Assembly (NCBI GenBank): GCA_003614675.1
Contig: ML002283.1
Location: forward strand, 1-47,960
Reading direction: 5' to 3'
DNA: 47,960 nt
Source of the DNA: Dimargaris cristalligena
Lineage: Eukaryota
The notes under the pieces are model-generated. The model searched no databases, was not told where the DNA came from, and saw only the letters and a program-made list of their open reading frames with translations. Made by a program: the position numbers and the translations under genes. Positions 1 to 26,370 of the stretch are shown here, in pieces (position 1 is the first letter of the stretch; each line of letters starts with the position of its first letter).

Positions 1-115
1 CTTGTCACTGCCCCTAACACTAGTAGCCCGCTTGGCCGTGTCCAACGCCCCGCCTACTGTTAGAAGCCTACCCCCGAGACTCTTGACGGACTAAGAGTGG
101 TTAATTCGGGCGACA
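1..115 (-). mobile_element. LTR-like repeat, copy 1 (truncated by window edge; CpG-rich)
   Basis: The reverse complement of 1-115 (TGTCGCCCGAATTAACCACTCTTAGTCCGTCAAGAGTCTCGGGGGTAGGCTTCTAACAGTAGGC...) aligns with the starts of the copies at 24056 and 46737. It begins with TG. Strand is relative to the other copies. Confidence 0.8.
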
Positions 116-899
116 TATTCCATACCCCCTTTATTAGTTAACTCAATCTATTAGATATCTCCTTTATTATTATCTATAAAGCACCATTCGCATCAACTGC
201 CTGTGTGTTATCTCTTGTAAACTTGTCCGAGGCGTAGCCCTTTAATTATTTCTTATATTATAGGCTATGACAAGTATTACCCACGAAAAGCTCGAACAGA
301 AAATATAAAACATAATAAAATATGAATACAAATCACCAGGAATAATAGGCAGTTATACTGGTTTGAAGTTTAAGTGGATTTATTCAAATATCCTAGAGAA
401 AAAATGTGGAGTAATTCAGTGGGGTATATATACAAAATGGTAAGACCAAAGAAACTATTACAAATTATTGAAGAACTCAAGGGCCATGGATTATAAAAAC
501 CTACGGTAGGGGAAAACTGATAAAAGCGCTAATATATGGTAATGCATGGATAAGAGTTATGAAAGATGACTGGAAGACCTGCAGGGTGGTGGTGGTCCTG
601 AGCCCCCTAAATGCCAGATATTGATAGGATGGATATAAAATAATTCATAAGCAAACGCTACCTGGTCCAATTCCTAAAAGATATTCACCAGACAACTGGT
701 AATTTCTAAGCCATGGTTAAAATGATTTAATGATGTCACTAAAATGGCAATTCGAAGTAGGCGATTATTGTTTGACAAAATCACCATCAACCTCGACTGG
801 CTATAACTTCGCCGAACAGTAGAGAAACCTAAAATTAAATGGCAGATACGGAAAACTGAAGAAAATAATAATCAACTTGTATAACGAGAATAATATGAT

Positions 900-2027
900 T
901 CCGACTTCAAGATTTTGCCATAGAATGGGACTGATAATTTCCGGTGATCTTGAACTCGTTCATATTACATCTTTAATTTGATACCCACATTGCCCATGGC
1001 AGTGCATTGAGTACATTTACATTAGGCTATTTGTAGCGGTATCACTAGGGATAAAACCCCTATTATATATCTTCATTGTGGTGATACAAATCAAGGTGGG
1101 CCAGTCGTGGACAGAAACACAATGCCCAATTGTTCTCCTACTCATCGAATTCTACAATTACACTCGCAGCGATTGAGGAGTAAACCCAACTAGGGCAGTA
1201 ACGTTTTCCAGGAGGGTACTGCCAAGAACCACTTCATGAAAAACTAGGCCAATAATTGGCTCAGCTATTTGGTGCTTCGGGCCACATGGTACTGTCCGAG
1301 GTGCCGCCGGGACCACGGGGCCATATGCAATAAGTACCCGCAACAGCACCATTGGGGTGCTGTAGACTTCTCGAACTGACTTGATTTCATCCTCCAGATA
1401 CCCAATCGCTGTATCCGGGAGGACGAGTCTCCACAGACTACGGTCGTTTTTGACTTGGGCTGGCCAACTAAGTACATCCCAGTGAATGGGTCCCTCCAGA
1501 ATCATGGTTTTGTTCGCATTTTTGGCTCCATGGGGCAAGCTCACCGGAACCGAATCGGGCCATGGATACATGTCGAACTTTGTGGATACGAGGACCACTA
1601 ATTTGAAATTTTTCACTAGTTGAATAGTCCGCCCTAAAAGGCGGACCAGTCGATTCAAGAGTGCGGGATTGTGCACCTCAACAACCAGACTTTCCAAGGG
1701 TAGTTAGGCGTCAATGCCAATGCCAAAAAAAGCACAAAAAAGAGGGTCGGTGGTGGCTTCGCTATCCAACACAAGGGTGATTTGCTGTATTTTATCCCGG
1801 TACTCGAAAAGAGTGCAATACATTTCGTGGGCGTTAGGGGAACTGGTTGCCACACTCATGTGTTGAAGGTCAGGGGGACGGGGGACTTGGGCTTGGACTT
1901 GACCGACCGAAGAAAATGATAGAATGTTCTTATTTGGGACATACTGGTTCAGCTGAGCCACGGAAGTAGAATGAACTTCGCTTGGTTGATAGCCGGGGCT
2001 AGAATGACCGGTAAGTTGGTTGGTCAT
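900..2027 (-). pseudogene. Probable degraded gene of unknown family
   Basis: ORFs 1704-2102 and 1158-1697 are in the same frame, separated by one TAA (1704-1706). First ATG at 2027. The frame continues below 1158 with further TAG/TAA/TGA stops. No recognised homology; 3' limit uncertain. Confidence 0.4.
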
Positions 2028-4949
2028 GTTGGAATCTATGTTGTTGTATAGATAAAGTATACCAAGCGTCGAAATGTATGCTAAGAGTTGCTGTATTAAC
2101 AAACGGGAAGTATTGGTTCCAGGTGTGAACAGGTGGTGGAATAGTCGAAAACGCGGTGGATATTACTGAGGTTGAAGGGGGTGGGGATTATTTAAAATTC
2201 GAGTGGTGTGTTAGTTGAGCAATAGTGGGTGTAGACAATAGATAACTAGGTGGGGTTGTTGATAGGTCTGGTAGAGGGGCCGGATGCTGCCTTTTTATCC
2301 TCTGCAATGCCAATTACCAAAGTACAGTAAGCCACAATACTAGTTCACATTTCGTGTCGCCTAGTTCGAGTAGGCCCAGCCATCAATTGGGGAAGCACCA
2401 AAAACTATGTCCTCCAAACGGCCATTGCGAAGCCCGGTCTAACCTGTAGCTTGGCTACTTAACCCTATTTGTCGACTATTTAGTAATTCCATAGCAAACT
2501 TGAAGTGATATTCTTTGTGGGCGGATTAACCGATCTTTGCAATCAGCAGCTGGTCTGGTCACCCCTTTGTTCAATCTAAAAGTAGCCAACGACGGCCGAT
2601 GGCTTTATTCCCAGAATCATCGACTTTGTTACCAACCTCCAAGTAAAATAAAGGCATTTTTTTTATATATTTGGAACCTACGACAATAACCTATCCATCA
2701 AAAACGGCGCCAGACCCATCAGTGGCTGCCCATTTAGAATATCCAAAGACAAAGTGGGTAAACAAATACTCTGGCCCAGATTCGGTTGGCGGAAAGTCCA
2801 ACGGTGGGAAAGAAAAAAATGGATTCCACCCCACCCTGACAATGGCGAAAATTCAATAGGCATTTCGTTGTTTGATATCTCGTCATTTGGGATTCGAGTA
2901 CTCCTCCCAAAGCCTCACCAGGTTCTCTCAAAATCTATAATCTTTTGTGTGAGGACTGTTGACTACTTTCAATGCTTTGCTAAACTGGGACCAACAATGA
3001 GTTCTCATCAAACTTGTCAATCGACCATGAAAATAATTATTATGCCGAATGCGACACCAGGTTGACCCTAAACACTCACACACTGGCCATCGATATAGGC
3101 ACTTGCAGTAGTGGTAACCTTCGCGTAGGCCCTTTGGAATAGTTCGCCGGTATTCGGCTAACCAAGACTACACTGTATAGCGACATGTCTTTCCTCTGCC
3201 TTAGGCAGCTGTGTCATCAACGACTAGAACTCCAGCGCCCCTATCTTTTGTCCGTGGGAGGGCACTCCCCCAGTCTTCTCTGCCCATGGTTTAACGGGGG
3301 ACATGGGCTGTACTGGAAGCAATGAATTGTTCATAATAAAGAGTCGGTCATTACTTATGCTTCGTATATTTGACTAGACGTGTGAATGTCTAATTAATTG
3401 AGGGCATGTTTAACATCGACATTGCTTGGCCCTGGTGCTGGGAACTATCGTAGTCATCATTGTATGTACATAGTTTTGTTTTGGTTGCCATGCCTACTGT
3501 ATTTGTTTGGGTGAAATTGGAAACTACATGTAGGTCGGGGTGATAATGCTAACTCCATCGAAAGCATGGTTTAACCAAGTATCGTCTAAATCAGGCGCTA
3601 AAAGTATCAACCAAGGATATGTGGCCGTGGTACCTGGCGGCCAGAGTTGGTTATAAAGTATTACCGCCGACATGTTAGGCACAGGTTCTAATCAAACTTA
3701 TTAATTGATTTCCAAAACCCCGGAAGGTGGGATTATTGACGACGTTTTAGTTTGCAATTTATGCGTATTGCGAGAGAGATCACGCTATTGTATTTCCTTA
3801 TAATACAATATCGTTAAATGAAGAGTGCATGGATCATGGGCATTAATGGTTGGAAAAGTTGGTATGGGTATAAGAAATGTATCAGATATTACCTGATAGA
3901 ATTATCTGAATAATACAAACAAAACCAATTCATTACCGTCCAATACATCAGAGCGCCTGTATATTTCAAGTGTTAGAATTATGAATCGATGGGCAATTGC
4001 AAAGTCTTTCTAAAGCAGCTTATAGAAAAATTTAATGAGAGAAACAACTGCAAGTGACATTGCTAGATGATCGCGGTTGGGTGGATTGAGTTAGGTAAAA
4101 GACATGAGCGGACTTAGGCCCAGTTGTATTGGGCTCTGAGTGATACTCGTATGGGAAAATGGGCGGGGGAATCATATAGAGCCAGGAAAATTTGCATCAT
4201 CTAATGGATGTTTTGTTATACACCTAAGTAAGCCTCTCCCATACCAATACTGAACAGTTTGTTATACTGGCTGCGATATATATGTATATATGGACACTTA
4301 AAGCTGCATGCTCAATGAAGCGGTTGGTTCTATATTTTTGAGAAGTTCTCACCATTGGATTGCGCTATACGTCTGTCTTTCCAACCGCATTGAACTTCAA
4401 ATTACATTAATGGCGGTACGATGAAAAGAGAAGTTTCAGTAGTGAGAAAAAAGCAGAGAACGGACAACCTCTTGCTACTCCTGCGACACGTTGTTGACCA
4501 ACCGAAGTTTGCTGGCCTTCTCCCGAGGCCTACCTAATGGCCAAAGAAAATGAATCCCTGTAAGAGAAGGATCGCCTTATATTATTACAACACCCCCTAC
4601 TACTGGTAGAATCACCTAGCTAAGAGGGGATCAGAAGAGGAAAAGGGAGGGTGAGAATAGGTTTAGGTGAGAGACATGGGCTGTACCCTATGTTGCTCTT
4701 CCTCGGATTGGTCAAGGGCATTTAATGGGTGATTGCTTTAAATGGAAGTATCCAAGGAAACGTACCCCACCTGACTTGGGCGCCATCTATTTGCTGTGGA
4801 TCTACGGGTTGAATCAATTTTCCCACCTCTCATCACTTCGCCTCTCTCCTTCACACTGCCAAAGTGCTCGCAATGTTGGGGACCTGTGTGTTGTGAACTT
4901 TATCTATATACCCACATACAAATCGCCTGACATCTGTGCGATATCCCCC

Positions 4950-4977
4950 CCACACACACTCACACACACACACACAC
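4950..4977. repeat. (CA)n microsatellite, interrupted
   Basis: cacacacactcacacacacacacacac seen directly. Confidence 0.85.
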
Positions 4978-6165
4978 TCTTCCCGCCGGGAGTTTCGGTT
5001 CCATTTAATCGACCACGTCGAATTCGTGGACTATTTGTCGGTCCCATTTTTGGTGTACAATTAAAGAAGCGCCCACCTGGGATATTGAATGAAGCCTGGT
5101 ACATATTACTGGCTCTTCGGGCCCGCTACTTGGTAATGGTGGTGGGTGGTAAGTCATTCTACTTAGCCTGCCAAATGATCTACAGTACCAGCTGCAGGGT
5201 TCACATAGTATATAAGATGTTCGCTTATTTTATCGAGCAGGGGGAGGAGGGAAGATGTAGTAACAGAGCGTCTTGTTGGTGGAATATGTTAACTGTAATC
5301 AAAAAATATATTACGTCTCTTTCGTACACCCCCTACATAAACCTAACGTCATGATATGTGTACTTCGCCATAGCGGACTTGACTAATGACAGTGTAGCAT
5401 TGCTTTAAACCGTTGGTATTCAGTCGGCATATGTGTGATATATCCATAGTACATGACATGGTTACATTTAAATCGAGTAGTCACTGAGCTATCGGGTTAA
5501 AACCTACCCAAAGCAATGAACAAAATTGAATGCTGTGCGTTGATATCATCGTGACATAGCAACCAAAATGTTGGCGAATACTGGGTGCCGACGGATACAA
5601 TTTAATGCAAACTCTATCTCCAACTACTTCGCGCTTTAGTTCAAATAGTAGATAGTATACTGGTCTGCGCCTTGCATATCCAATGAACATTTTTAGACCC
5701 ACACAGTGATGCCCATATATACCCAGCCAATTCGCAAGTCCACAAGTGTACACCCACACCTCCTTGTCCCATTTTGTTTTAAGCCTGCTCTGTGCCCTTG
5801 CTCTGAAGATGGGGGGGGGGGGCTGATGATAGAAAGCCAGCTATCGTAATCTCTGTTCCCAGGTCGCTTCGGTCGGAGACTGGTGTGGTCAATCGCCGCC
5901 ATTCTCGCTCAATTTTCCCAGCCAATAGATAAGAAGATACAGGACTGCTTCTAGGGCTGTTGAACACCCCCTCGTATCATTGGTAGATGGTCACCTGGTC
6001 AGGGAAAGGAACGACACGCCCCCTCTTAACGCACGTTGATGACCATTTCTGGTATACGGTTACAGGAGGGGAGGAGTAAAACGAGGCATATCTCACTCAT
6101 AGTTTGAAATGCGCGTAGAGGGGGGGTAACGAAATTAACTCCAGTTAGTCGTATTAATCATTAGG

Positions 6166-6173
6166 TATAAATA
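6166..6173 (+). promoter_or_regulatory. Putative TATA box of the acyl-CoA synthetase gene
   Basis: TATAAATA ~130 nt upstream of ATG 6302, followed by a pyrimidine-rich leader. Confidence 0.45.
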
Positions 6174-6301
6174 GACGACTGGATCCTCGTCACCTGAACC
6201 CGATATATCATCTACTATTCCCTTATTTTCCACTTTGGCCTTAACTTCGCTATCCTCAACCCACACCCCGCTCAGTCCTCTATTGTATCAGTTAAGCCAC
6301 G

Positions 6302-8281
6302 ATGAGCCACCGCCTCCTTACGCTTTCCTCCGCCCCACGGCTCATGTCCCGCCGTCTGGCGCCCACCACCCGACTGGCGGCGGCTTCTCGATTTGCCGCC
6401 CGTCGGGCCCTGACCCCGGGGTATCTTTCCCCGACGGTTCTCCACCGTTCGTTGACCATCACGCCCACCCGTCCTAGCGGGGCGGCTGAAGCCAGCGTTG
6501 CCGCCAGTAGTAGTGCCCCGTTTACCTCACCCGAACCAACAGCCCTACGGTTATCCCACGTCAAAGGCGATGCCGCGTTTCCCCTCCAAGAGTATACCCT
6601 CGGCGAGGCGTTTGACCGGCAGGTGGAGCTATTCCCGGACAGTACCGCCATTGTGGTGTCCCACGAAAACGCCCGACTGACTTACCAGGAACTGGCCCGC
6701 GAGGTAGACCAGATGGCCCAGGCCCTCTACGACCATGGCCTGCGGCCCGGCGACTGTGTTGGCGTGTTCATGCCCAATACCTTGGCCTGGATGGTTTTGC
6801 AGTACGCCACAACCAAAATCGGCGTGATTTTGGCGACCATCAACCCGGCCTACCGGGTGGGCGAACTGGAACACGCCCTGAATCTCGTCAATTGTAAAAC
6901 CCTAGTACTGACCCCGTCCTTCCGTTCCTCCAACTACATCAACATGATCCAGGAGTTAGTCCCGGAGGTAGCCCAGTTGTCCTCACCTGCCCCCAACGGG
7001 GAAGGTGCGGTGGCCCTCCAGAGCGCCCGAGTCCCTTCCCTCCGGTCCATTTTCGTGGTGGACGAGTCGGCGAAATCGGGAGCTGCGGCCGGGCCCGAAT
7101 GGCGGCACTTGCCGGGGTTGGCCGATTACCAAACGCTGCGACACGCTTCGCACCAGTCGGCGACCCGCGCGGCCATCGCCCAACTGCCCCTGCGGAATTC
7201 GGACGTGGCCAACATTCTCTTCACCTCGGGAACCACGGGTAAACCCAAGGCCGCGGCCCTCACCCACCGTAACCTGCTCAATAACGCCCTTCTCACCGCC
7301 CACACTCTAGGGTACACCCACCGGGACGTGGTGTGCTGTCCTTTACCGCTGTACCACTGTTTCGGTCTGGTGCTGGGAAACTTGGCCTGCATGACCCAGG
7401 GGGCCACCATGGTGTTCCCTAGTCCGGTATTTGAGGCCCAAGCCGTTTTAACCGCCGTGACTAAGGAGCGGTGCACCTCGCTGTACGGGGTTCCCACGAT
7501 GTTTATCGAGGAAATGGCCCACCCCGACTTTGCTTCATTCGATCTGTCCAGCCTGCGCACGGGTATCATGTCCGGCAGTTCGTGTCCCATTGAAGTGATG
7601 CGGGAGGTGATTGAGAAAATGCACATGCGGGAGGTGGTCATTGGCTACGGTATGACCGAAACCAGCCCCATTTCGTTCTTTACCCGCCGCGACGACCCTA
7701 TTGAAAAGCGGGTCTCGACCGTGGGTCGTGTGGTCTCCCACGTCGAAGCGAAGATCATTGATGCCGCCACGGGAGCCACTTTACCCACCGGGGAGAAGGG
7801 CGAACTCTGCATCAACGGGAGTGGTGTGATGCAGGGCTACTGGAACGACCCCGTGAACACCGCCAAGAGCATAGATGGCGAAGGGTGGATGCATACGGGC
7901 GATCTCGCCATCATGGATCCGGACGGGTTCTGCCGCATCGTGGGCCGGTCCAAAGATGTCATCATCCGGGGCGGCGAGAATATCATGCCGCTGGAAATCG
8001 AAAACGTGCTCTTTGAACACCCCGCCATCTCCAATGTCCTGGTGGTGGGGGTACCCGACGCCAAGTACGGCGAACAAATCTGCGCCTGCGTTATCCCCGT
8101 AGACTCCCAGACTCCCGTCACTCTGGAATCCATCAAGGACTTCTGCCGTGACAAAATGTCCCACTATAAAATGCCCCGGTATACCTTGACCTTCCACGAA
8201 TTCCCCCAAACCGTCTCGGGTAAAATTAAGCGGAACGAGCTGAGCGTGCTCGCTGCGGAGCAGCTTCAGCTCAAGAAATAA
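6302..8281 (+). CDS. AMP-dependent acyl-CoA synthetase (ACSF2-like), probably mitochondrial; intronless, 659 aa
   Basis: ANL-superfamily motifs [30 protein letters not shown] and PQTVSGKI. The N-terminus is R/S/L/A-rich and lacks acidic residues, like a mitochondrial presequence. Confidence 0.93.
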
Positions 8282-11006
8282 ACCTCAACCGGGGCCATCT
8301 CCCCCACTAACTAAGCCCAGGAGAGAGCGGCGCTCCTTAACGTTGTGGCTATTCCGTGACGGTGTACTTATTGGGTATATATCACGTCACTGAAACCCGT
8401 TTCTTACTCGTATCCTCCATCGCCTCGCATCCAAACCAGGGGGCGGTGGTTCGCTTTTCCGCTTAACTGCGTGTGAGCCCCTCGCTTATGGACTTTGCTG
8501 CATACTGTACTGGTTTAATCCGGTTTTTAAACCAGAATCCTCTGCTTATATTTCTCTAGTTTTACATTGTATTCGGCTCTACAGCACCGAATCTATTAAT
8601 CACCTGGTTTTGTATGTTCCCGCCTTACTCGTTAGTATTCTGAATCGTATGTTATTTTACCATGTATTTATTACCTTCCCTCATCACTGTTTTAAGATAA
8701 ATTAATAAACTCGCATCACGTTTAGAAACGCAGCAGGCAATCAGCTATATAGGAGGTTGGTTTGTAACTCAGCAATCAACATTGGTATTTTTGGTTGGTT
8801 TTATATATCAATTGTCGATGGCACGGCAGCTCTTGTAGACTTGGTATATTTATGGGCAGTTTAGGGCTACGTTGGATTTGAATAACCGGATATATCAATG
8901 TTTAATATTAAAGTAGCTAATTCGAATTTACGGGAACAAGACAATTGGGAATATCTGGGTCCCATTTTTTTCTATGTATGTCGAGTATTATTATCAGGTA
9001 AATTTTATAACATCCCTCAAGCAGGCGGTAATGGATAGGCAATATGTAAGGATCTATTCTAACTGTATACACATGGCGGCTGGCCAAGGTTTATTTAAAA
9101 TTCGCGGTGCCTATTTTGTTTAATGGGGAGGGGAAGGGTGCATTAAACTAACTATGGGCAGCCCTTACTATAAAGACAGTCCGGAAAAATGGTGGGAAAT
9201 AGACTGGACCAGCATTAATTATTACCGCCCCTATTTAACCGGAACCCTATTGTAGAAGGCACAGTAGGAAGCATAAGTCTAGGAATGTTAGACAAAAAAA
9301 TCCAGCCCTTGGCACCCTGCAGCCAAGGTCTGAAGTTCTATGATCGGACACAGCGTTAAAGTACGTATAGCTACATAAACAATAGTGATGCTGGGGTTTC
9401 AAGCAGACTACGTACAATCGAAATGCCCGGCAAGATGCCATTTAGTGGTTATTGTATTTGAATTAATCCCACTTTAGTGATGATTATGCCCGTATTTAGA
9501 ACTGCGGGTTATGTTAACATAGTGCTCTATTTTTTGATAGCCTATCCCACTCGATTGAATGGGACATTCTTTAGCGAGCGCAGTAGGATTTACATTTTCA
9601 ATATCCATTTTACATTGAAAATAGTCTACTCGAAGTCATATGCTGCACAGTTCTAGATCGATGACAATCCACTGTTATTTGCCTGAGGGATCGGCCCATT
9701 CGCGGAAGGAGATTACCAACTAATTAAAACCGCTATTGATAAAATCTTCAGAATTAATTTGTATTGGTTTAGAAAGCATTGGAAAATGGGTGTATGAAGT
9801 TGGGTGAGGCGAGTACTGCTCATGATAGGGGGGACGTCCTCAGATAGTTCTCGGACAATAAAAGTAGACCCAGTTTGACCAGCCTAGGTGGTATGGGATT
9901 GTGAGAGGGGCTAGTTAAATGGATGGACAATCTTCTTAAAACCATTTGGGCCGGCCCTTGTTATTCCACCAAGCAGCATAATCAACACGCACCACCTCCT
10001 GACCCGGGACTAGCAGGGTGTCCTGGCTGCGTGGGACTACACCAAACCAATCCAATCCAAAAAAAAACACAACAGAATTACCAATTTATACCGTAAGGGT
10101 CATTGTGGGGTCGCGACGTTTAAAAGACGGTACCTGTAATAATGAAGAACTACCAGACAATAGCCTGGATTGCCCCCCCGATATGGTTATCATCCCGACT
10201 AAACCGTGGTAAAATCCACGCCAAGGTCTGAGCCCCCTCCTCATGAACCTCCGCCACCTGACCAAGCAGGCTGCGTGAGACGCTACTGCGTGGTTCTTTC
10301 GATATATTTTTCCGTTGTTTTTACCCCATACCCAGCTGGCACCTGCTTGGCAATATTAGGTTAGGGAGGGTGTCAACATTGGGAGTGATAAAAGGCAAAT
10401 GTTTATGCGGTCATATGTGGTCAAGTAAATCCCGTATAAAGCGGCTATTACGACATCTAATACCCCGGCCGGCAAGGATTCTGTGTTCTTTTAGTCGAAT
10501 TTCCAATCGTCTAATTATATGAAATATTTTGAACTAACTCTCCCAGTGTATATTTTTTCAGAATTAGACAGGGCGTCTCAAACGAATAGCCCTGGTCCTC
10601 TATTCCATTGCATAACTGGCTCGCTCCCACTCTGGTTCATTAGCACATCCATGGTACATTGGGGACTGCAGGCGTATGGGTAAATGATGTATGCCAGGCA
10701 GTCTAAGGGAGATACTCGAGTGGGGGGGAGGGGGGGATGTACCAAGACCACCGGTACTTGTAGGTGTGAAGAAGCACCAAACGATTGGCTAGAAATATGA
10801 ACGAATTCCAGGGTTGCAGGGAGGTGCAGGCAGCTACAGTTGGACCATAATCGAATGATTTCTACTTCTCTAATGGTGTAGGAAATGCCTTGGCTATATT
10901 GGCCACGGGTACTTGGGTCCAGGGTTGGAGGGCACTCAGCCACCCGAACTAGGTCGCCGGAATACAGAGTAATGCTGTATATTAATATCTTGTCGGGGGA
11001 GTGTCG

Positions 11007-11030
11007 ATATATATATATATATATATATAT
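11007..11030. repeat. (AT)n microsatellite
   Basis: About 12 AT units seen directly. Confidence 0.9.
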
Positions 11031-11909
11031 TATATCAATGGGTTACATTACATTGCGTAATTAGGCCATTTCGGCCATTTAATGGAATCCGTTGTTACGA
11101 TTACGGGTGTGCATTTCTATTTACCAGCCCTACGACTCCGACCCTTCCAGGTGGCTATTCCAACGTCCATTTCCCGATGCATCCCCCCCCCTCCCGCCTA
11201 ATCCAGCTCGCTCTTTTCAACACCCGCCGTACTGCTCATGAGTAGACTGTTGCATAGTATTGGGTAGATGATACCCGTGGTGGAGGTGATAATGCAGGCC
11301 GGGAGAAATCAAAACAGGGATTCCAGCGGTACATTCCACGCCTTGTCTATCCATTGGCTGTGCTTCCGGGAAGGGAAAGGGGAACCCGCTGGTAATAACG
11401 GTGGGAAAGTGACACTGCTTTCCACTTTGCAATGTTTGGCTGCTGTGTAGGATCATTACCGGTTGTTTATATGAAATGAGTGAGAGATTCGTAAGGCTCA
11501 CTGGATGCAGCGGTTGCTAATCGGAATGTAAATATATGAAGGCACCTAAATAATGGGGAATGTCCCTCTTATGGCCGTACCCAGACTCCGGTCTGGTCGA
11601 TTCAAGAATGGCCTACATTCAGCTTCATCCGCGGGATGGTGGGGACTAATAGTTATTTTCCCTCATGACGGGGAGGGAGGGAGTAGGGGGGCAATTAACG
11701 GCCGTAGTAGAGGGTATGGTTCTATGGACACGCACTATTATTAATTCGCAGTAATTAAAGGAAAGGGGGTGTGGAGGTGGTTGTATTCCCAGAAGGAACG
11801 CAAACAATACATTTTGGGTCACGATGGACAAGCCCTGTCCACGGTTTCCGTTCCCCCGACTCCTGGCCCCAGTCCAAATAGCATGGCCTTAGTATAAATG
11901 TATAAACCG

Positions 11910-11970
11910 AATAATAATATTAATGATAATAACAATAATAGTAGTAGTATTGGTAGTAATGGTAGTAGCA
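11910..11970. repeat. Degenerate trinucleotide low-complexity tract (AAT grading to AGT/GGT)
   Basis: ataataatattaatgataataacaataatagtagtagtattggtagtaatggtagtagca. Confidence 0.75.
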
Positions 11971-13374
11971 GAAGGGGAGGGCTATAGTACTAGCGGAACC
12001 CATTGCTGCTAACAGCGTGGGTCGCAGGGAAATAAAGAATGAGTCAAGATAGGGGAGAACACATGAGAAGGCCCCCAAGCCCCATTCGCCCCAACCCAAC
12101 CCCGCCCCCTCCTCCTCATCGGGACGGTCGCCCCAACCCAACTGTCCCCAGCGTGGTCACGCTGGCCGCCCAAAAGGTGGTAACCTGCAGCGCTATTCAT
12201 TTGCAAATTTGGCCCTGGCAATCTGCGGTGTTTCCTTTAACCCCTTGGATACACCCACCCATCGTGGTTATATGGACTAGTCGACCCGCAGGTTCATCTG
12301 GGACAAACGGACTGGATTTTATCGGGGTGAATTGGGTTCCCCTTTTGCATGCCCCGCTTAGTAGGTTTTCGCTTCTGCTGCCCTATACCGAACAGTCGCC
12401 GCTGGGATTTAACTGAACAGGAGGAGGAGGAGCACCCAGCGCTCATTTGGCGCCGTTCGGACGTAGACCGTTTGGGCGGTGGACCAATGGTTGCAGGGGT
12501 TTAGCCTGGATATAATGCTCGAAATGGAATGTTTATGTGAAAAAAGGCGAAATTAAAATATAAATCGATATATAAAGCGGGAAAAGCCACACATGTTCAT
12601 ATACATATATACAGTACTAATAGGGCCATGGGGTTTAGGGTAGTAATGGGGAATAAGCCTGGGGACAGTGCCCAGAAGTCGCCCCCCTCCCTTCCCAGCT
12701 GCAGCCTGCCTTGGAGGTAGTTAGTTTATGGTCAAGGCTTTTCAGATTCGCGCAGTTTAGGTGTTTCACATATTCTTGCCCTTTTGGGGACGGGATCCGC
12801 TCTTTGTTGATGTCGGGGTTTGAATACGGTGGGTTGCGTATAATAGAAATAGAATAGGAATAGGAGTAGGAATAATAATAGGAACAGGGTTTCTCAGCGC
12901 CCATGGGCCCTACCGGGCTCGGTGGTGGGAACGGTACAGTGGCATTGTTTAGATCCGAGGGTCTGTCGGCGAGGGTTAATAATATCCTCGCATATCCTCC
13001 ATACCACATAGACATGGTAGTAGTACCAGGAGGACTTGGTTATATCGTCTGGGGGTTTTTTATATTGCCGTGCAGCCGCTTCGGTGAGTCTGCCTATACT
13101 ACCACTCCATTTCTGTATATGCTGCTGCATACAATCAGCTGTGTTTATAGCCTCTGAATTGATCCTATTTCTCCCCCTCACTGACTCTTCCTCTCTCTCT
13201 CTTTCTTGCTTTCTCTCCTGTATCTTTAGTTTCTTCCTTTCCTCGTTTAGCCTATTTTTATTATTCCGGCGCTCGTCAAGGCGCTCGGTCTTTTGCAACG
13301 ACTTCCTCCTCCTCTTCACTCACTTGCTGCTTAAACGCCTTCACTAACCGGTTATCTACCCCTTCTTATGGTTT

Positions 13375-13394
13375 GAACGAACGAACGAACGAAC
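13375..13394. repeat. (GAAC)5 tetranucleotide repeat
   Basis: gaacgaacgaacgaacgaac. Confidence 0.85.
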
Positions 13395-14323
13395 CCTCGC
13401 TCTCCTCTTCTCCTCTCGCAGACTTACTTGCTGCCCTTACTTCCAATCTATTCAAGCCCACGAAACCACTCCTCCCCCGTTGGCTGTTCCATACCCTCAC
13501 CGGCACTTGTTTACCTTCTTCTCTACCTTCTGAAGCTGTCAAGGTCGGCTGTGTAACCCAGCCTCTCGTTTGCCATTCGTCCATTTTTGGACATATAAAC
13601 TTGCCCTCCCAGTTTCGCATATATATCTTACACTCCCGTTGGAGCCACAAAGGTATGTGTCCCCCCTTCCCCTTTGTCCCGCCCACCTGCCTATCGTCGT
13701 TTAACATTGAGGGTTAGGTTAGTTAGCTTCCCCCACCAACCCCGTGTCTATTGGGTCCACCGCATACACCCAAGGGCCAAAGCACTTAGGCTATACATGT
13801 CACCCCCCCACCTACTACACCCATTCTATCCACACTACTCCAGCCCCCCTTCTCCCGCGGACTATTTCCCAACCGCAAGTGGTCCCCCATTCGTTTTTAA
13901 CCAACTAACCGTCGGCCATTCCCTGGCATTGTTTCATTTCTCTCTTCCATTTAACCGTTTCCTTGTCGGCGCAGCGTCCTGTTCCCTGGCCTTCCGCCAC
14001 CTCACCCCATTGCATACTACCGGCTTCCTTGCCATACCGACGCAAGTTGCCGAGACCAGCGAGCCTTTTGCCACTCCTGCCCAGCCCGACGTATTTTCCT
14101 ATTGTACCTCTTGCTACTGCCCACTTTGCCTGTATACCCTGTCGCCATACTTTGAATTCTTGTGGCTCTGGTTCCCAGCTTGTTTATTTTGGCTGCAATC
14201 CAATCGGGTATTTCGTTCCCAAGCCGTATATCCTCGTTCCAGCCGATAAATTAAATTAAAGGGACGAGCAAAAGAATACTCCTTCCCACTGAACCTTTTC
14301 CCCCTTTATTTGCACACCTACAA

Positions 14324-17300
14324 ATGGCTACTCATCAGACCCCTTCCCAGCTAGGTAAGTTTCCATGATTCTACACCCTGATGACTAGCTCCACCCGTTT
14401 ATATTGCTGCGTACTGTATCCAGCGCCCTTTCCTCGAGTGAATCTTTGCCCATCTTAAGGGTTTTCTGGATCGTCCCCTCGTTGTAAATGGCCAACGAGT
14501 ACTGACTGGTGTTGGGTCGTTTTATCATCAGTTGTTGTGGTTCGACATTCCCTCGTGAGGACGCCGCAATTCCCTGGAGCTCTGGAAAGCTCATTCACTC
14601 CCTAATCGGTGTTCCTTGCCTGCCAGTATTCAGTGCCCGTCTCCTTCCCCTTAAGGTTCGGCAGACCATTTGGCAGTTGTACCGCAGGCCACATGCTGAA
14701 CAATAAACAAGGGCAGGGAGGAGTAAAGTGCTTAAAAATATCACTTAGCCCCCCCTGTTTTTTTTATAATAGCTTGGCATTCACCAGGGTGGCCCGTTTT
14801 CCTTGATTCTTTCTTCATCTCTCCTTCGTAGTTTCCCTGACATTCAATATACTCATAGCTTTTACTATTTACGTTACCAATTGACCTTCGCTACTGCCAT
14901 TCTAGACCCACCCGGCCGGTTGAACCTCTATTCTCCCGCGACCCCGGCTCGACTCTCTTCCCAAAGGTCAGCCCTGTCTATGCTAGCCGTTAATACCTCT
15001 ATGGACACCCACGGCCTGCGAACATCCGCCTCCGTAAGCGACTTGACTGCATCCAAAGTAGGCCCCGGACGGGCCTCTAACGGTACCCTGTCCCAATATC
15101 CGTCTACTCCGCTAGGTAAAGGCTTCAAAGAGCCTCTGCCTCCAACCCGACCTCTCAGTAATGGGGTGTCGTCTTTCCCAACACCCGACTCGGCCCTTAA
15201 AACAGCTCCCAGCGGCACCGGGGCCATCCCGCTCTCCTCACTGATTAATGGCGCTCCCGTCACCAAGATGGCATATCCCTCAAACCCCCCTCCCGCCCAA
15301 CGGCGTCTCTACGAGTCGAGCCAAGGCGGTGACCGAGTGCCCCCCAGCTCACCGTCTCCCAATACCTTACACGAATCCTTCAACCGTCTCAACCAGGTCT
15401 TCGGTGTAATCAAAGAGCAATTGACCCTATACGGACCCGGGTCCCGCTGGAAAATTGATCTGCTACTTATGCCGCCGGGCTGCTCCAACGAAAATGGTTC
15501 AACTTCCCCGGCCACTCCCGCCATCAGCAGTTCAATGTTCATTGGGCCTCGTTCCCCAGAAATGGAAACTTCCCCGCCAATGTCGCCTACATCTCTTAGG
15601 GCACTCACCTGGCCCCAAATCCAAGATATGACTGCGGCCCAACTACGCGCTAACCTGCACGAGGCCGTAGAACAGCTAAGACATGACCCACCATCTGACC
15701 AGCGTCGAACACGCCCACTTCCGCAGAGACGCCCAACCCCCCCTCATTGGGGTGTATTTAGTCCTGTGGGGCCGGGAAACCATCCCAATCCAGGCAATTC
15801 GGGAACCAATGGGCTAGATGGCCTGGCCCTATTGGCGGACCAGGTGGTCGCCCACTACCCCGGGCGAACTGACCCCAGTCCGACTCAGTCGGACTCGATG
15901 TCAGCCGTAATTGCGCACACTAAATGTCGGTCAGAGGATATTTGTCCTGCCGGCAACCTGGTCCCATCCTCTATCCCAGAGAGCAATGACGTTCATCCCG
16001 CCGTCCGGAGTCGTACCGGATCCCCACCCAGGGAGGTTTTGGTAGCCCAAAGGTCCACCCAGTCCCTAACCGAGATGTTCGAGCGCTGTCGGCGCCAGCA
16101 CCTCCAAGATCAGCCTGCGGGAGCTTCTCCCAGGCACATCGCCTCGTCTCCGCTGGCCCAGCGCTCCAGCCCCAGCGGAGAGTCTGACCGGGCCATGCGG
16201 CCTAGCCCTTCTTTAGTGGATGTCTTCACTACTTCAGAGGTACCCAACCTAGATTCGGAAACCGAGTCAGACGGCTTCTCCGATGCAGATTCTGAAGTTA
16301 GCGTTGCCCCCTTTGCTCGAACCCCGTCCCTGGATGCTCGAGGTCGTGCGCGTTCCCAGTCTGACCCCGCTGGCCAGCCCCCTCAGCTCCAGCGAGTGGG
16401 ATTGCCGCTTAGTCGGGGCAAGCTACAGCCACCCATATCATTTTCCAAGCATAAGCGTAAGCCGATAGTGGTCGGCACGGCCTTCACCAGCACCGGTAAG
16501 CCCCGTTCCTCCCGCAACCGCGACCGATCTGGGGCCAAACGTAAAAATCCAAATTCCCGCAAGATGGCCAAGCGCAATCGCTTGCACTCCAAAACCGGTC
16601 ATCCCGGGGCGAACCTGACTATTCGTTTAACTTCGGGCCCCCGGGTTCTGCCCAATGTAACGACGTCCACTTCCGTATCGCCCCCTGAACCATCCCCCGC
16701 TCTTCCAAGCGCCAATACCCACAGCCAACACCGCACCGCCTTGGAAGACCCCATGGGGCGTTTGGAAATCACCCAAGGTGGATCCCGAGGCCGAACGGCG
16801 AGTAACCCAGAGGCTATGGGCTCATCCGATAGCATCCGCTCGGGGGTATTGCCTCCACTCCCGCCCGCTCAGCGCCTCGTGGCAGCTGCCCCTGATTCAC
16901 CCAGTAACAAGGAGAACCGCTGGCGTGAGTTGGTGGGACGGGTTACCCGACGGGGTCCGGATAGTGGTCAAATGCGTAAGTCGCTCGAGGAAAAGCTCCG
17001 CTCTCCCATCAAACGTCTGACCAGCCCGCGCCACAGTCGGATTGGCTCGCCCCCTGGTGAAGGAGAACCTCCAAGTCCCACCGAAGGCCCGAACAGTAGC
17101 CCAGGGTTACTGTCCCTATTAGGACTAAAGAAGCGGGTTCCCGTCCAACGTGATCCACCCAGCGGGCCGTCTCAGGGACCCACCGGTCACCAACTCCCGA
17201 CCCCAACGGGGTATCCCCCATTGGCTCCCGCCCCCAAGCTGGGACGCCACGGCGGAACACCGGGCCACATGTTGTATCGTCCACATCCTGCAGACGCTCG

Positions 17301-18948
17301 CAATTTCCCTGAGGGCTCAGCGTCGTACGCACCGACGGGTCACCCCCACCCGTCGTTCCACCACCATCAACATGCTTCCTATGGCGGCTCACCGGCTAGT
17401 CCCGTCACGACGCCTTATGACCACCCACCGCATCATAATCCGTATGCCGTTCAGGCTTATCATATGTCGAGACAGCCCCCGACACCGACTCAGCCAACCA
17501 ATGGGTCCGCTTCGAGTCCGGGACTTCCTCCCATCAGGGCAAACTGCTCGGTTAACCGACCTGGTGGGGTCCACACGGACGCCAGCCGCTACTATCGTCA
17601 AGTGACTGCCTCTCGCATGGCCCCCTACATTTCCACCTCGCGGTTCGGCATACCGTATCACCCGGCCAAGCGCCGGCGTTCCGTGTACGCTAAGTGGTCC
17701 CCTGCTGAAGATATTCTTTTGCGAGTGGCTACTTGCAAGTACGGCGAGAAGAATTGGGACTCCATTGCCCGGGAGGTGCCCGGTAGGACCTACCATCAGT
17801 GTCGTCAGCGATGGAATAAGTCGCTCAAGCTGACCAACCCACTCACCCCTGAAGAACTACGTACTGGAAAGCTCGGTGATGACCTGGATATCGAGGGCGC
17901 ACGTACAGCCGTTCAGACTGCGCTCAATAACAGCCAGACCCAGCCGATGGGGCCTGATGGCACTAGTGCCATGCTCAGCCCCGGGTCCGAGGACCTATCG
18001 TGTTCGCCCAAGTTCCCGAACCCCCAGTCTCCGGGTGACTTGATTTCACCTTACTTGACTTCGACCCATGGCGGCGAGACGGTCCCCGGCCATTTCTCGT
18101 TGCAGCACTCCCCCTACCCAGTCAACGCCCACCCTCAACGCTATCCTCCGGGAACCTACTTCCCTCACCACCATGCGGAAACGGGCGCTACTCAACCCCC
18201 TACCCCTTCCGATGGATCGGGCTACCCACCGCTGGGCCGTTGGCCAACTGCTGGAGACCGCTCGTCATCCCATGTTTCCGCTTCATCGTCCACCTCATCT
18301 CTGATCTCCCCGTCCCATACTGGTGGCCCATCAACTATAATGTATTCTCCCATGGTCAAGCCCATTGACGGCTATTGTCTCCAGGTAGCCCCGGCGGAGC
18401 CTCCTATCCCCCGATGCTCCGAAGGAATTTCGCTCATACCACCCTCCCCGTTGATGCCTGAGCCCCAAATGAACTGGCCCAACGGCTACCATCTCAGCGG
18501 GAGTTCGCCCATCGCTGCACACCATCAGCTCGGCCCAGGCCCCGTGGTCGGGAATGGCGGAAACAGCGTCGTTAGCCAGGTCTCTGACGCGACACTGGCG
18601 CCCGCTGACGAACGATCCGGCAATGGCTACCGTCGCACTCTCCAGAAGGTGTCGAGCCGTATTGGCCGTATCGTACACGGTAACGGGGTTTCCGACTCCT
18701 CGCAGTATAATGCATCGATGGCGCCAATGGTTTTGGCACCCGGCCAGGATAAGTATCATGCCGAAACCAGTGGTTACCCTTACCCGTCCAATGATATGAT
18801 TGAAGCTGGTGAGCCTGAAACGGACGCAACGATGTGTAGCCCTGTCACTATGGGTGTTCTGGACTCGACCCTCCCTGCCATTGATGAACCAATCGTGAGC
18901 GATAAACCCAGGGGCAACAGCATTCGGAGTTTGGTCAACTCTAACTAA
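14324..18948 (+). CDS. Large, mostly disordered Myb/SANT-domain transcriptional regulator (~1357 aa); exons 14324-14354, 14906-18948
   Basis: Myb repeat KWSPAEDILLRVATCKYGEKNWDSIAREVPGRTYHQCRQRW (~17692-17814). A mini-exon ATG GCT ACT CAT CAG ACC CCT TCC CAG CTA G|GTAAGT splices in frame to the acceptor TTCTAG|ACCCA at 14905. Alternative start is ATG 14980. Basic NLS-like clusters (KHKRK, KRKNPNSRKMAKR, KRRR). Confidence 0.85.
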
Positions 18949-21900
18949 TCGCGCCTTTTGTCCCACTGCATTTTGGGTGACTAGGCTTTGGCCATTTTCG
19001 AACAAGATGGTTTGGGTGTATTGCCGGAGTTCTGTTGCCGATTGTTATATCCCCATGAATGGCCCACCCATTACCTTTTACTAAACTATTTGCTCGATGC
19101 AATTGCTACATCCCTTATAATCTATCCTTATGAATTGTACATATTTACATTTACCCATTCCCTCATATCCACTATCTCCCAGTTATACATACATATATGC
19201 ATCCCCTCTACATATTACGACTAAAACCCGCGCCATTGGCGAATACCCCCTCCTCCCCCTTCACCGTACTTTATCATACTCATTCTGTACTTTATATCTA
19301 TATCTGAATATCCTACCATTTTGGACTATCCCGCATATTGCACTACTCTTCTGTATTCCCCCTCCTCATCATTTACCACTGTTTTCCCCATTTTCTAGAC
19401 CCGATTTGTGATTTATACAAGTTTGTGCGAATGTGCGCCATGTCATTTTACTAGCATGATTGATGGCATTGGTTATTATAAATGAAGTTGATTAATTCTT
19501 TCAAAATAAGACTGGTGAATTAGGACAGGGGAAAATTGGCCAGTTAATTGCATGCTATGCTGTAAAACCTGGTGAGATTTGATGTCAGTTTGTAAATGAG
19601 ATTGCAATTCTATCTTGCATATTAGAAAGGAGCTGGTAATATAGAAATGGTGTGGTGCATTTGGATCTCAAATCGACTCCAGCTTAGTTGCAGCAGCTGG
19701 GTGGTTAATGTAGCTGTCTAGTTTTTGCCGCATGCTTATTCTGTCATCCTGGATTCTTCAAGTATACACTTGAGTGTCCGACGTCGAGAATAGGTATATT
19801 ACAAGGACACTTTATTGAATGATCCAGTGGGCAAAATGTATGATAACTAGAATAATAAACTGAGAGACATTAGGAAGGGGTAGCGAATTGATTAATCAAC
19901 GGGTAATATATGTGTGTTGGGTGATAGACGTGGGATCTAAATATACCAGACGGGGCCGTCGCCGGGTTGGAACATGCGTTTGGGCTAGTTTGTTATCAAA
20001 TTAGGTGAGGAGGGTATCATATCCGCCAGACCGCTTACCTGAATCGGTACTTAATAATGTAATATGTTACAGCACTATTCCCATGACAACGCCTAGCACC
20101 GCGAGGGTCATTGATCAGTCACCCCAGGCCATACTCAAAGGTCTCATGCATTGAAATTCATCCTTAATCAAAGACCCCTCTAGTTCCCACCAGAGTTTTC
20201 TGGATACCCGTAGATAATTTCCGAAGCCATCATTAACATCATTAAATGGACCCTCGATTAGTGCTATACACTTCAGTGTTCATATACCGATGCCCCTCAC
20301 CATTCTGCTGTTCTAAATGGAGTAAATACTAGATGAGCCAATTACTGGTGTCGTATTCTTAGGAAGCCCACATCATATGGGCTCTAATCAGTATTAGAGG
20401 GGTTAACTACCGTCGCAAGTGGGAATACTGCTATTAAGTCAGGCTATATGCACATTGTACTAAAGGTATTCTATATCAACGGCCCATACGTAAATCTCAA
20501 AATGGTTAATTATACTACCAAGGGGCAGGGTTAGGGTGTCTATGGCGCTGTAATAAGGTTAAAATCAAGGCTGTCTAATAGCTCGCCCAATGCTGGCGCG
20601 GGAATGACTAGCAAAAAGACAACCGGCATAACGGAGCGGCAAGGGGGAAACCTGAGGGAAAGGGATTTTGAAAGAGTAGAAAACCATCAAAAAGGTACAA
20701 TGTGAATATCTGCTGGTAAAAGTCATTGTTATATAGTTATACCGACAATAGAGTAATAGTAAATAGCTCCGAAGCCATCAGGGGGAGGTATGCAGTGATA
20801 AAAGCGGTACAATGTTATACGTGCGTTGGTCAAGGGGGTGACAATTGGTGAAGCCTCGAATTGGTGCGGGTGGTTCGCCAATAGTGATTGAAGGAAAGTG
20901 GGCCGTAGTAACATCCCATTTAGCGATATCTATACCGTGGCCCCGGATGGCAGTCCAGTAGGGGTAGGAAGAGGCTATGTCAATTGCATTGATTGCTGGT
21001 GTGAGTATTTAGCCCTGCAGTAAAACAGCTCAAACTGACGAAATACTAATATAGTTGCCGGTCAGCAGAACGGTAGAATATAGCATCTTTATTCGTCCCC
21101 AATTCGCAAGGCTCGGCAAGGCTAAAGATTGCTCTATTATGGATTTGTACTTACAGCTGGCTACCACTTGAAGAGCAGTAGTTGATAATGTGAGGAATAA
21201 TGGCAGTAGCAGATTTTTCACTAATTCGACTCTTACTATCAGTGTGGAGGAAGGTGGTACCTGAGTGCATACAAACATTGCCCGCTTGCTCTAATAGTCT
21301 GAATTACAATAGAAATGTATTCATCGCGGTACACTATTCCCGCACTTGGCGGTTCCCGATAAAATCATCTGTCGTGATCAATCAAAGTTGGCCAGTCTTT
21401 TTAGCCGTAAATCTGGTCGCATAAAATAACCAGGTATACTATCACTATAATGTCGATGGATTCATCTATAGGCCAATCCTATTACGACAATCCCTGTGGT
21501 TTACTGCTATTAACCAAAGTGCGGCTACCCCATAACTTGCTACAGAATAAAACACCCGATAAAATGACATTTCTCACCTATGTGGGAGTATGTTTCCAAT
21601 GCTGGATCACATGTGGTATATGCCCGATTCGAGCTGTTCGTAGCTAGATTATAATCGATTGCAGTTTTATTATTACTATCAACCAAAGGCAACGGTCACC
21701 CTATAATCCAGCCGCTCTATTTGACACTTCTCTATTTCATACATTGGCATTCACGGCGTCTGCAAGTGGATCGACAGCGTGATGGTGTTTAAAGACCCAT
21801 ATAATGCCATATAGGGCATTACTGGGGATAGTTATTGAAAACATCACCTCGCCATCTTGGTCTGAAACGATCCTTCCAAGTCCCAGGAGTGCGCCAGCGA

Positions 21901-22889
21901 ATAATCAGCTTTGATTGTTCTAGCTTGGCGAGCCCAATAGTCTCGGGATTTACATATACTTTTTGGATCGAATTGGAGAAGTGATTGAACAACATTGTAT
22001 GGTACCCTCCTATAAAGGTGTAAGTGCAATGGGCCCTCGGGCGGAATGACGATAGTGACCAGTTAACCGAATGCTAAGCATAATGGGTGTGGATGTACCC
22101 TTCTGTGATGATCATTTGCCCGGATCGTCCATCGTATCTACTCATATATGCCCTATTAAATACCGAACTAATGTAATATATACCAGATATTTCCGGGCGT
22201 TCGATTTTCATTGCCTTTGTTACTCCCCCGGCCAATTGCACATCAATAGACAGGGATAGGGATGTACACGATCCACGGATTGGCATGTGAGTATGGTATC
22301 AATTAGTACACCCGTCAATTAAATGTGTATCACCCCGATTGTAGGCCAAGCGGCATACAACTAATTTAAACAACCTGTACCATTAGCAGCACGGCGATGG
22401 CAGAGTAACAGATTCTGGGCCGATTGGGTGCACTAAACCGCATTATTGTGGCTCGGATTATTTTCATACGTATAATTTTCCAATAGTGAAATGTGGCAAT
22501 CGTGACCGTCGCAAATATGAGCCCTCTCAAGTAGATCATAGGTAACCGCCCGCTCCCCCCTGTCGAAAATCCCGGTAACTTCATTAGTTTAGGCTGTGAG
22601 TAGTACGTTGGTGCCAAATGAATAGGAGAAGGTCCTGTAGGTATTGGAGGAGCACAGCGACTCACGGCCGAACTGAGCTGGAGGAGAGGTATTTGGCCAG
22701 TTTCCTACATAACCACACTGTTCACCTGATTTTTGCTATATATCATCCCTCATTCTTTTAATCATTACTCCGAACAGCTCTTACTTTTTCTATTGAAATC
22801 GCCCATACGCGTGTATCATCGTTTAACCCGCCTTCGTTGTCATTTTCGGGCCTATTCCACTTACCACTACAGCCCCACGGTCATCTGCA

Positions 22890-23264
22890 ATGAAGTTCAC
22901 TTACCTGTACACTGCGGTTCTTTTAGCGGTAGTCGCTGTCCCCTCGGCACCGCTGGTATCGTCCGCGGTCGTCCCCGTCAACACCGAATTTCAAGTTCCG
23001 TCGGCCCAGCGCCATGTCACACCTCCAGTCACCGAGTCAGACGTTCTAGCCCATCACCGCCACCCACACTTTGCTCGTACTGCTCTCTATTCCTGTAATT
23101 TAGGCTCACGGCCAATAATTCAAAGACGCTCACAACAACCGACCCAGCTTGTCCCCAGTGATAATATAGCTGCGGATAAGCAGTTACGTATTACGCCTCT
23201 GTCTACTGATAACACAATTGCCCTGATTCTTGGTAAAAATCTTCATATGCTTACCTCATTTTGA
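22890..23264 (+). CDS. Small secreted pre-pro-protein, paralog A (124 aa)
   Basis: Signal-peptide-like N-terminus MKFTYLYTAVLLAVVAVPSAP. Colinear homology to 26005-26370, including upstream DNA. QRRS at residues 78-81. Confidence 0.8.
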   Translation: MKFTYLYTAVLLAVVAVPSAPLVSSAVVPVNTEFQVPSAQRHVTPPVTESDVLAHHRHPHFARTALYSCNLGSRPIIQRRSQQPTQLVPSDNIAADKQLRITPLSTDNTIALILGKNLHMLTSF

Positions 23265-26004: not shown

Positions 26005-26370
26005 ATGAAGTTCACTTACCTTTTCTCTGCGGTTCTTTTGGTAGTGACCATTGCCACTTCGGCTCCCCCGGTTTCCTCCGCAGCTGCCCCCATCAATACC
26101 GAACTTCCCGTTCCATCGGCCCCACATTCTACCACACTCCCAGCCACCAAGCCCGATATTCTAGCTCATCGTCGGCTCCCACTCTTTGCCCGTAAGGCCC
26201 CCTTGCCCCGCTTGTCGGTCTCGCAGCCTACTACGCAAAGACGCTCTAAACCACAGACCCGACTGACCCTCCAGAAGGTCCCTAATTTGACTAAACCCAT
26301 TTATATCATGGCCGTCTCTTTCAATAATCGGATCCAGATACCATCAAAAGAATTGCTCATTGTATTCTAA
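26005..26370 (+). CDS. Small secreted pre-pro-protein, paralog B (121 aa)
   Basis: Signal-peptide-like MKFTYLFSAVLLVVTIATSAP. 45 of the first 81 residues match paralog A without gaps (manual count). QRRS at residues 78-81. Confidence 0.8.
   Translation: MKFTYLFSAVLLVVTIATSAPPVSSAAAPINTELPVPSAPHSTTLPATKPDILAHRRLPLFARKAPLPRLSVSQPTTQRRSKPQTRLTLQKVPNLTKPIYIMAVSFNNRIQIPSKELLIVF

Follow-up and report, generated by a model that had tools for sequence, protein, structure and literature searches.

Among the closest described systems are transposon copies of Microbotryum, Puccinia and Melampsora, in which C-to-T changes at CpG only have been attributed to methylation followed by deamination; a CpG signature standing alongside CpA in Tuber melanosporum received the same attribution, and these signatures were linked to Dnmt1 of the Masc2 class and not to RID (PMC4352252). 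Hypermutation at TpCpG has been described in Pucciniomycotina (PMC3318451), and Dim2 of Zymoseptoria tritici drives mitotic C-to-T changes at CpA that spare CpG (PMC8016269). A kingdom-wide k-mer screen found enrichment resembling repeat-induced point mutation (RIP) in the repeats of Ascomycota only (PMC12543289). According to a 2026 review, early-diverging fungi are nearly free of 5-methylcytosine (5mC) and N6-methyladenine (6mA) is dominant, Zoopagomycota not being named in the list it gives (PMC13297926). The passages and search listings consulted contained no statement on 5mC or DNA methyltransferases (DNMTs) in Dimargaritales, nor on 5mC in Zoopagomycota. Here we describe a dispersed repeat family on a contig of 47,960 nucleotides (nt) from a fungus of the Dimargaritales. 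The whole contig, which is without N, was analyzed and is referred to below as the window. Old copies of the repeat, together with the DNA on either side of them, have lost nearly all of their CpG dinucleotides.

Loss of CpG from old repeat copies and their flanks

Self-comparison of the window delimited five pieces, designated c1, A, B, C and D, of one many-copy, non-coding, dispersed family with a unit of about 600 nt (Table 1). Pieces A to D together hold a single CpG in 1581 nt, where about 39-51 would be expected; set against the low-GC baseline of the window, with an observed/expected ratio (o/e) of 0.78, the expectation is 39 (Poisson P = 3e-16). That one CpG lies in A (at 24337; 23 expected from composition), and B (18 expected), C (9 expected) and D have none. 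Not one of 147 baseline windows of 600 nt has a CpG o/e below 0.44, their median being 0.86, and the copies lie at 0.00-0.04.

Of all CpG-free stretches in the window, 46482-47681 and 23605-24337 are the longest, and 24337-24864 comes next. They mark two islands around the old copies, 1.3 to at least 1.5 kb in extent, from which nearly all CpG has been lost. The segment 46483-47680 has 0 CpG against 38.5 expected from composition. Likewise, the two flanks of A, which bear no likeness to the repeat in comparisons within the window, have 0 against 15.5 expected. None is found in the flanks 23606-24055, 24659-24863 and 46483-46670, and two are found in 47622-47960, so that the four flanks combined have 2 where 29.4 are expected (P = 8e-11). 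The preliminary description of this DNA had called the pattern repeat-restricted. The loss is indeed concentrated at repeats, as the 147 baseline windows illustrate, but it also reaches 190-450 nt into the flanks. There, the o/e of CpA+TpG (1.03-1.20) and of TpA (1.02-1.27) stay within the low-GC baseline (0.88-1.25 and 0.74-1.32, respectively). The flanks have thus lost CpG without loss of CpA, as would be expected if CpG methylation had spread over a domain.

Transition counts at cytosines were tabulated by dinucleotide context with c1 as the reference, over about 110 nt. c1 has a GC content of 0.57 and carries 8 CpGs (o/e 0.87), one of which falls at a 1-nt deletion common to A and B, leaving 7 that can be scored. 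These read CA, TA, TA, TA, CA, TA and CT in A, and TA, TG, CA, TA, TA, CA and CA in B. Hence CG is kept at 0 of 14 copy-sites, while TA, the product of a double hit, is found at 7, CA or TG at 6 and CT at 1; A and B are unlike each other at 6 of the 7 former CpGs. The conversions given in the preliminary description (TGTCG to TGTCA/TATTA, CCCGA to TCTAG/CCTGA, TCCGT to TCTAT/TTCAT, GGCGG to GGCAG/GGTAG and ACGG to TTAG/TCAG) are all present in the alignment with A and B, and two more can be added, CTCGG to CTAAG in both copies and AGCGG to AGCTA (A) or AGCAG (B). Its claims that several sites were hit on both strands and that positions where one copy has CA and another TG mark further ancestral CpGs also stand: half of the copy-sites (7/14) read TA, and CA/TG sites occur at positions 60, 100 and 109 of the alignment, the last close to its end. 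By this count, about 3 of 11 ancestral CpGs received a single hit in c1 itself.

Transitions are enriched at CpG, as had been proposed. C-to-T changes affect 10 of 15 CpG cytosines of c1 in A and again 10 of 15 in B, compared with 11/46 (A) and 10/46 (B) at non-CpG cytosines (Fisher P = 0.004 and P = 0.003, respectively). By context, the counts in A and B are 5/21 and 3/21 at CpC and 1/16 and 3/16 at CpT, and transitions at A/T sites of c1 amount to 8/48 and 5/48. In the three-way comparison of c1, A and B, every one of the 18 columns inferred to be ancestral CpG varies, and only through transitions; among the other columns 27 of 91 vary, 16 by transitions only and 11 with a transversion. Compared with c1, neither strand is favored (C-to-T 9/26 and G-to-A 12/35 in A; 8/26 and 12/35 in B). 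The bases 5' of the eight CpGs of c1 are T, C, C, T, G, G, A and G, and conversion occurred at 7 of the 7 scorable sites whatever the base; targeting of TCG was rejected, as only 2 of the 8 are TCG and all 7 scorable ones are converted. CpG is the main target.

Table 1. Positions of repeat copies, CpG-depleted islands and other features in the window
Feature	Position	Strand	Remarks
Copy c1	1-115	minus	first ~115 nt (5' end) of repeat, truncated by contig start
Copy A	24056-24658	plus	full-length, ~600 nt
Copy B	46737-47313	plus	full-length; sits within older inverted copy
Copy C	47318-47621	minus	middle portion of older inverted copy; matches A 24248-24567
Fragment D	46671-46736	minus	3' part of older inverted copy; matches A 24580-24644
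CpG-free island around A	23606-24863		one CpG (24337); includes 450 nt left and 205 nt right flank
CpG-poor island around D, B and C	46483-47960		runs to contig end; only CpGs at 47681 and 47698
Second multi-copy repeat	116-270		unrelated; abuts c1; CpG o/e 0.76
Topoisomerase II	27151-32204	minus	several exons
DNA polymerase eta	38167-40642	minus

All three copies named in the preliminary description (c1, A and B) exist and align, although the unit is about 600 nt and not 115, the first copy being cut by the contig start. c1 matches B with a BLAST E value of 6e-13 and A with one of 1e-9. Its identity to A or B is 67-70% across 109 columns (67% for A), and A and B are 78% identical across 584 columns (given also as 76-78%). 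We read C and D as collinear parts of a single older inverted copy that was apparently split by insertion of B. At this nested insertion (46671-47621) the junction lacks about 10 nt of the old copy, and no clear target-site duplication was seen by eye there, nor were terminal inverted repeats seen by eye in the repeat copies. The element is possibly a solo long terminal repeat (LTR) or a non-autonomous element. An RNA gene or a source derived from transfer RNA (tRNA) for the conserved 5' end was ruled out (0 matches to Rfam and 0 tRNAs across the window), as were coding remnants in or beside the repeats, with 0 Pfam families among 9 stop-to-stop open reading frames (ORFs) of 19121-26370. Scanning metagenomes for a degenerate core motif of the repeat, 23 nt long, gave 0 matches.

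Apart from the CpG sites, the spectrum of changes is ordinary. Between A and B, 93 of 584 columns differ by transition only and 36 include a transversion. The corresponding transition-to-transversion ratios (Ti:Tv) are 29:7 for c1 and A and 25:8 for c1 and B, and outside CpG columns the three copies give 16:11. In contigs of three sequencing runs (X1, X4 and X5, see below), all aligned differences, mostly between repeat copies, give 399:173, 344:153 and 343:147, respectively (about 2.3), and for X5 in unique DNA the listed single-contig differences, 21 in number, give 15:6; of these 15 listed transitions 4 involve CpG, a number of sites too small to use. The ordinary Ti:Tv and the 36 transversion columns indicate that A, B and C/D are old copies without a transition-only burst. 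Judged by the criterion set in the preliminary description, too, the ratios count against such a burst, since neither 93:36 nor 16:11 is higher than the ratio in unique DNA or the overall ratio. When changes in A, B and C were polarized by majority rule, C-to-T (36/315) exceeded T-to-C (26/489; P = 0.003), which suggests that the direction was C to T. Singletons among A, B and C were compared by strand over 24248-24567, 46930-47313 and 47318-47621. On the plus strand of the element, G-to-A amounts to 31/237 (0.131) versus 7/93 (0.075) for C-to-T per site and branch, and A-to-G to 22/300 (0.073) versus 7/213 (0.033) for T-to-C. Purine transitions are thus about twice as frequent as pyrimidine ones on that strand, an asymmetry that is not specific to deamination.

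The abundance of the family was assessed with Logan contigs of the three runs, aligned to positions 1-20000 of the window at 80% likeness; X1 and X4 represent one sample, from which the DNA of the window may derive, and X5 a second sample from a separate study. In bin 1-667 the summed word depth, which does not equal copy number, is 17,922, 24,832 and 39,129 in the three runs, and in single-copy bins of X4 and X5 it is about 190-215. Contig depth along the single-copy DNA of 1-20000 is even in X4 and X5 and ranges from about 2 to 216 in X1. In each run, 25-31 contigs match c1 through its terminus as far as place 115, beyond which their flanks differ from one another (agreement 0.4); this fixes the terminus of the element at 115. 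In 25-29 other contigs per run the match stops at 104, and the consensus beyond it resembles copy A. Clipping before place 47 is seen in another 11-15 per run, whose consensus has CA or TA at the CG positions of c1 and is without the same base that is missing from A and B. The family is therefore large, and c1-type members coexist in it with A/B-type ones. Alignment through 105-115 suggests that the c1-type contigs retain their CpGs.

Explanations for the loss of CpG

The reading we favor, with a probability of roughly one half, is that these are CpG-methylated repeat islands eroded by deamination of 5mC. The repeats plus a few hundred bases on each side would be, or would once have been, CpG-methylated as silenced chromatin. 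5mC would deaminate to thymine on either strand, turning CG into TG or CA, and over a long time this would run to saturation; with background transitions at 10-24%, a several-fold higher rate at CpG suffices for that. Leftover cytosines would then be hit again to give TA, through transitions at background level combined with a somewhat elevated rate at CpA/TpG. c1 would belong to a less eroded set of copies, presumably younger or unmethylated, which still carry CpGs. Methylation, and deamination as the chemical step, are proposed from the pattern of changes. We favor 5mC decay because the CpG specificity with hits on both strands (Fisher P = 0.003-0.004; C-to-T about equal to G-to-A) and a domain-like extent with sharp borders fit it, as do the signature of the flanks, the ordinary Ti:Tv and the coexistence of less eroded copies, while RIP of the Neurospora type fits poorly. 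The preliminary description had left 5mCpG deamination and a RIP-like genome defense side by side; the Ti:Tv, the flanks and the c1-type contigs lean toward the former, and RIP-like hypermutation is less supported.

Several observations weigh against 5mC decay as the whole explanation. The stretch comparable with a CpG-retaining copy is only about 110 nt long, and the flanks may themselves be other old repeats. Inside the elements TpA is in excess (o/e 1.58-1.74; 1.58 in A and 1.74 in B) and CpA+TpG is depleted (0.56-0.87; 0.62 in B), which is the reverse of simple decay of CpG to TpG and CpA; those products are kept in the flanks (1.03-1.20). CpG-retaining c1, with a TpA o/e of 1.53 and a CpA+TpG o/e of 0.79, has the same bias, and part of it may therefore be intrinsic to the family and not to the mutation process. 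Moreover, TA at 7 of 14 copy-sites exceeds what CpG-only decay plus background would yield (P = 0.003 with the background at 0.16, P = 0.03 with it at 0.24), although P rises to between 0.03 and 0.18 once the three inferred sites are added (7/20). Finally, polarized C-to-T changes among A, B and C are more frequent at CpA (11/45) than at CpC and CpT together (25/270; P = 0.009); saturated ancestral CpGs, invisible among three eroded copies, can yield such an excess.

Two seemingly stronger indications of CpA targeting did not survive. In the comparison with c1, CpA is changed at 5 of 9 sites in A and 4 of 9 in B; the notion that CpA is hit as often as CpG was dropped, as 3 of the 9 are CA/TG pairs marking hidden CpGs, and with hidden CpGs set aside about 3 of 12 copy-sites at true CpA changed to TpA. 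A two-copy CpA rate of 30/56 in B was likewise rejected, being inflated by reverse changes of the abundant TA to CA or TG and by hidden CpGs. Among A, B and C, 25 TA sites are invariant, CA/TG is invariant at 3 sites and variable at 24, and 3 sites mix CA with TG. A weaker CpA/TpG component beside CpG is likely.

Chief among the alternatives is a RIP-like, repeat-triggered C-to-T system in the Dimargaritales lineage, past or present, acting first on CpG and second on CpA and leaking into flanks, as RIP does in Neurospora. We consider it unlikely but alive. What keeps such a RIP-like or mixed CpG and CpA process in play is the excess of double hits, together with RIP indices that are positive in B, C and D. 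The former CpG cytosines behave as if hit independently, each with a probability of about 0.7 (7 TA, 6 single and 0 CG of 14), which fits a target wider than the intact CpG. TpA/ApT is 1.32-1.85 in the elements against a low-GC baseline median of 0.88, (CpA+TpG)/(ApC+GpT) is 0.64-0.65 in B and C against one of 1.21, and the CpA excess (11/45 vs 25/270) points the same way. There are precedents as well, in the mixed CpG and CpA signatures of Tuber and in CpG beside CpA in Aspergillus, as reported in PMC4352252, and in the Dim2-dependent mitotic mutator of CpA known from Zymoseptoria (PMC8016269).

The same system would have to account for the ordinary Ti:Tv (93:36 between A and B; 16:11 outside CpG), for the low count of true CpA-to-TpA changes (about 3/12 copy-sites of c1) and for flanks that lost CpG only. 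The copies are affected, and so are 190-450 nt of flank that do not resemble the repeat in comparisons within the window but may be repetitive elsewhere; the duplicated pair 22517-23145 / 25629-26260 beside A has normal CpG. Efficient RIP would, in addition, leave no less eroded members of so abundant a family, yet a c1-type terminus is present in 25-31 contigs per run; word depth does not equal copy number here, and the count is one of termini and not of highly similar copies. Seen across fungi, RIP-like enrichment was found in Ascomycota only in the kingdom-wide k-mer screen (PMC12543289), and RID is reported from Ascomycota only in PMC4352252. A stronger version, in which Dimargaritales, an early-diverging group of mycoparasites outside Dikarya, possess as a RIP-like genome defense an active repeat-directed mutator that prefers CpG, also acts on CpA/TpG, spreads to flanks and arose independently of RID, appears doubtful; if true, it would contradict the uniqueness of RIP-like signatures to Ascomycota as stated in PMC12543289.

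An inherited difference is just as doubtful. A, B and C would on this account descend from a source that was already CpG-poor and TpA-rich, c1 would represent another subfamily, and no independent hypermutation would be recorded. A and B have the 1-nt deletion in common and agree in several of their changes from c1, as expected from such descent; a consensus built from 11-15 more contigs per run shows the same deletion and the CA/TA states, and 25 TA sites are invariant among A, B and C, with CA mixed with TG at only 3. Yet A and B differ at 6 of 7 scorable former CpGs, as independent hits predict, and at two CpGs of c1 B reads TG where the contig consensus has CA or TA. The non-homologous flanks of A and of D/B/C, which cannot have been inherited from a source element, are CpG-free too, and a CpG-poor source would itself require a CpG-specific mutation process.

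Editing of retroelement complementary DNA before integration by an AID/APOBEC-like cytidine deaminase, to which a putative LTR and the excess of plus-strand G-to-A over C-to-T singletons (31/237 and 7/93) could be fitted, is barely credible and was rejected, as A-to-G exceeds T-to-C by the same factor (22/300 vs 7/213), the strands are hit equally relative to c1 and pre-integration editing cannot empty the flanks of CpG.

If the favored reading of 5mC decay is true, the footprint constitutes evidence at the sequence level for CpG methylation, now or in the past, on transposon copies and their surroundings in a fungus of the Zoopagomycota. It is a familiar type of repeat aging in a little-studied fungal lineage, seen on one contig of one genome. 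The family provides a concrete test case for a second, CpA-directed component and for the confinement of RIP-like mutation to Ascomycota proposed in PMC12543289.

Host lineage and neighboring features

By its sequence, the host is a Dimargaris-like mycoparasite (Dimargaritales, Kickxellomycotina, Zoopagomycota) and not an ascomycete. It is placed there because the closest named relatives of the ORFs for a NIPA magnesium transporter and an AMP-binding acyl-CoA synthetase are all Dimargaritales. The NIPA ORF is 90% identical to its counterpart in Dimargaris cristalligena across 87% of the query, followed by Tieghemiomyces parasiticus (84%), Dimargaris verticillata (83%), Dispira simplex (80%) and Coemansia (about 65%), and the synthetase is 57-62% identical to those of the same Dimargaritales genera. 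The genes of the window are eukaryotic in type and include, besides these two and those in Table 1, a polyprenyl synthetase and a Myb protein; no DNA methyltransferase gene lies within the 47,960-nt window. The synthetase gene (6302-8281, plus strand) is intronless, encodes 659 amino acids and lies in a GC-rich stretch (GC 0.57-0.61). Beyond Dimargaritales, the best named relatives of its product are Basidiobolus (51%) and then bacteria at about 50% (Thermogemmatispora, Proteobacteria), so that it may be of bacterial origin.

The second multi-copy repeat, next to c1, has as many as 19 contigs per run at a single place among those listed (163-268). At 3 of its 4 listed transition places, in CpT, CpA and CpG context, the window copy has T and most contigs have C. 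The direct duplicate pair 22517-23145 / 25629-26260, whose members are 69-74% identical, lie about 3.1 kb apart and bracket copy A, has CpG o/e values of 1.00 and 0.79; ORFs within the pair have no Pfam match, and it may represent a tandem gene duplicate or old LTRs. In X1 and X4, one contig carries a diverged copy of window 187-1804, with 28/220, 79/363 and 124/620 differing letters. This is a paralogous or second-haplotype segment; Dimargaritales may be non-haploid according to PMC9866270.

Comparison with described fungal systems

The nearest counterpart of this locus is the decay described for Microbotryum, rusts and Tuber (PMC4352252). As in those systems, C-to-T changes are concentrated at CpG in repeats, both strands are hit, the remaining genome is less depleted of CpG, and 5mC deamination, not RIP of the RID type, is the mechanism invoked. 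Unlike those fungi, which are Dikarya, the present host belongs to Dimargaritales (Zoopagomycota); moreover, the loss here is complete (1 CpG in 1581 nt), includes the flanks, and comes with an excess of CG-to-TA conversion in TpA-rich elements. The systems of PMC4352252 are tied there to a gene of the Masc2/DNMT1 class, whereas methylation of the present repeats is proposed from sequence.

With the Pucciniomycotina described in PMC3318451, the locus has in common a CpG-centered, RIP-like C-to-T change in the repeats of a non-ascomycete, but no 5' T is needed here, since 2 of the 8 CpGs of c1 are TCG and all scorable ones are converted.

The likeness to RIP in Neurospora crassa and other Pezizomycotina lies in the change of C:G to T:A in duplicated DNA, the enrichment of TpA and the positive RIP indices of B, C and D. 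It differs from that system in that the dominant target is CpG (10/15 per copy) and not CpA (about 3/12 true copy-sites), that Ti:Tv is ordinary (93:36 for A and B; 29:7 and 25:8 for c1 with A and B, respectively; 16:11 outside CpG), that many less eroded copies coexist, and that the lineage lies outside Ascomycota.

Dim2 of Zymoseptoria (PMC8016269), finally, brings about a methylation-linked mutation of repeats outside meiosis, with CA/TG reduced and TA raised, and a process of this sort could account for the second hits. CpG, however, is spared in Zymoseptoria and is the main target here.

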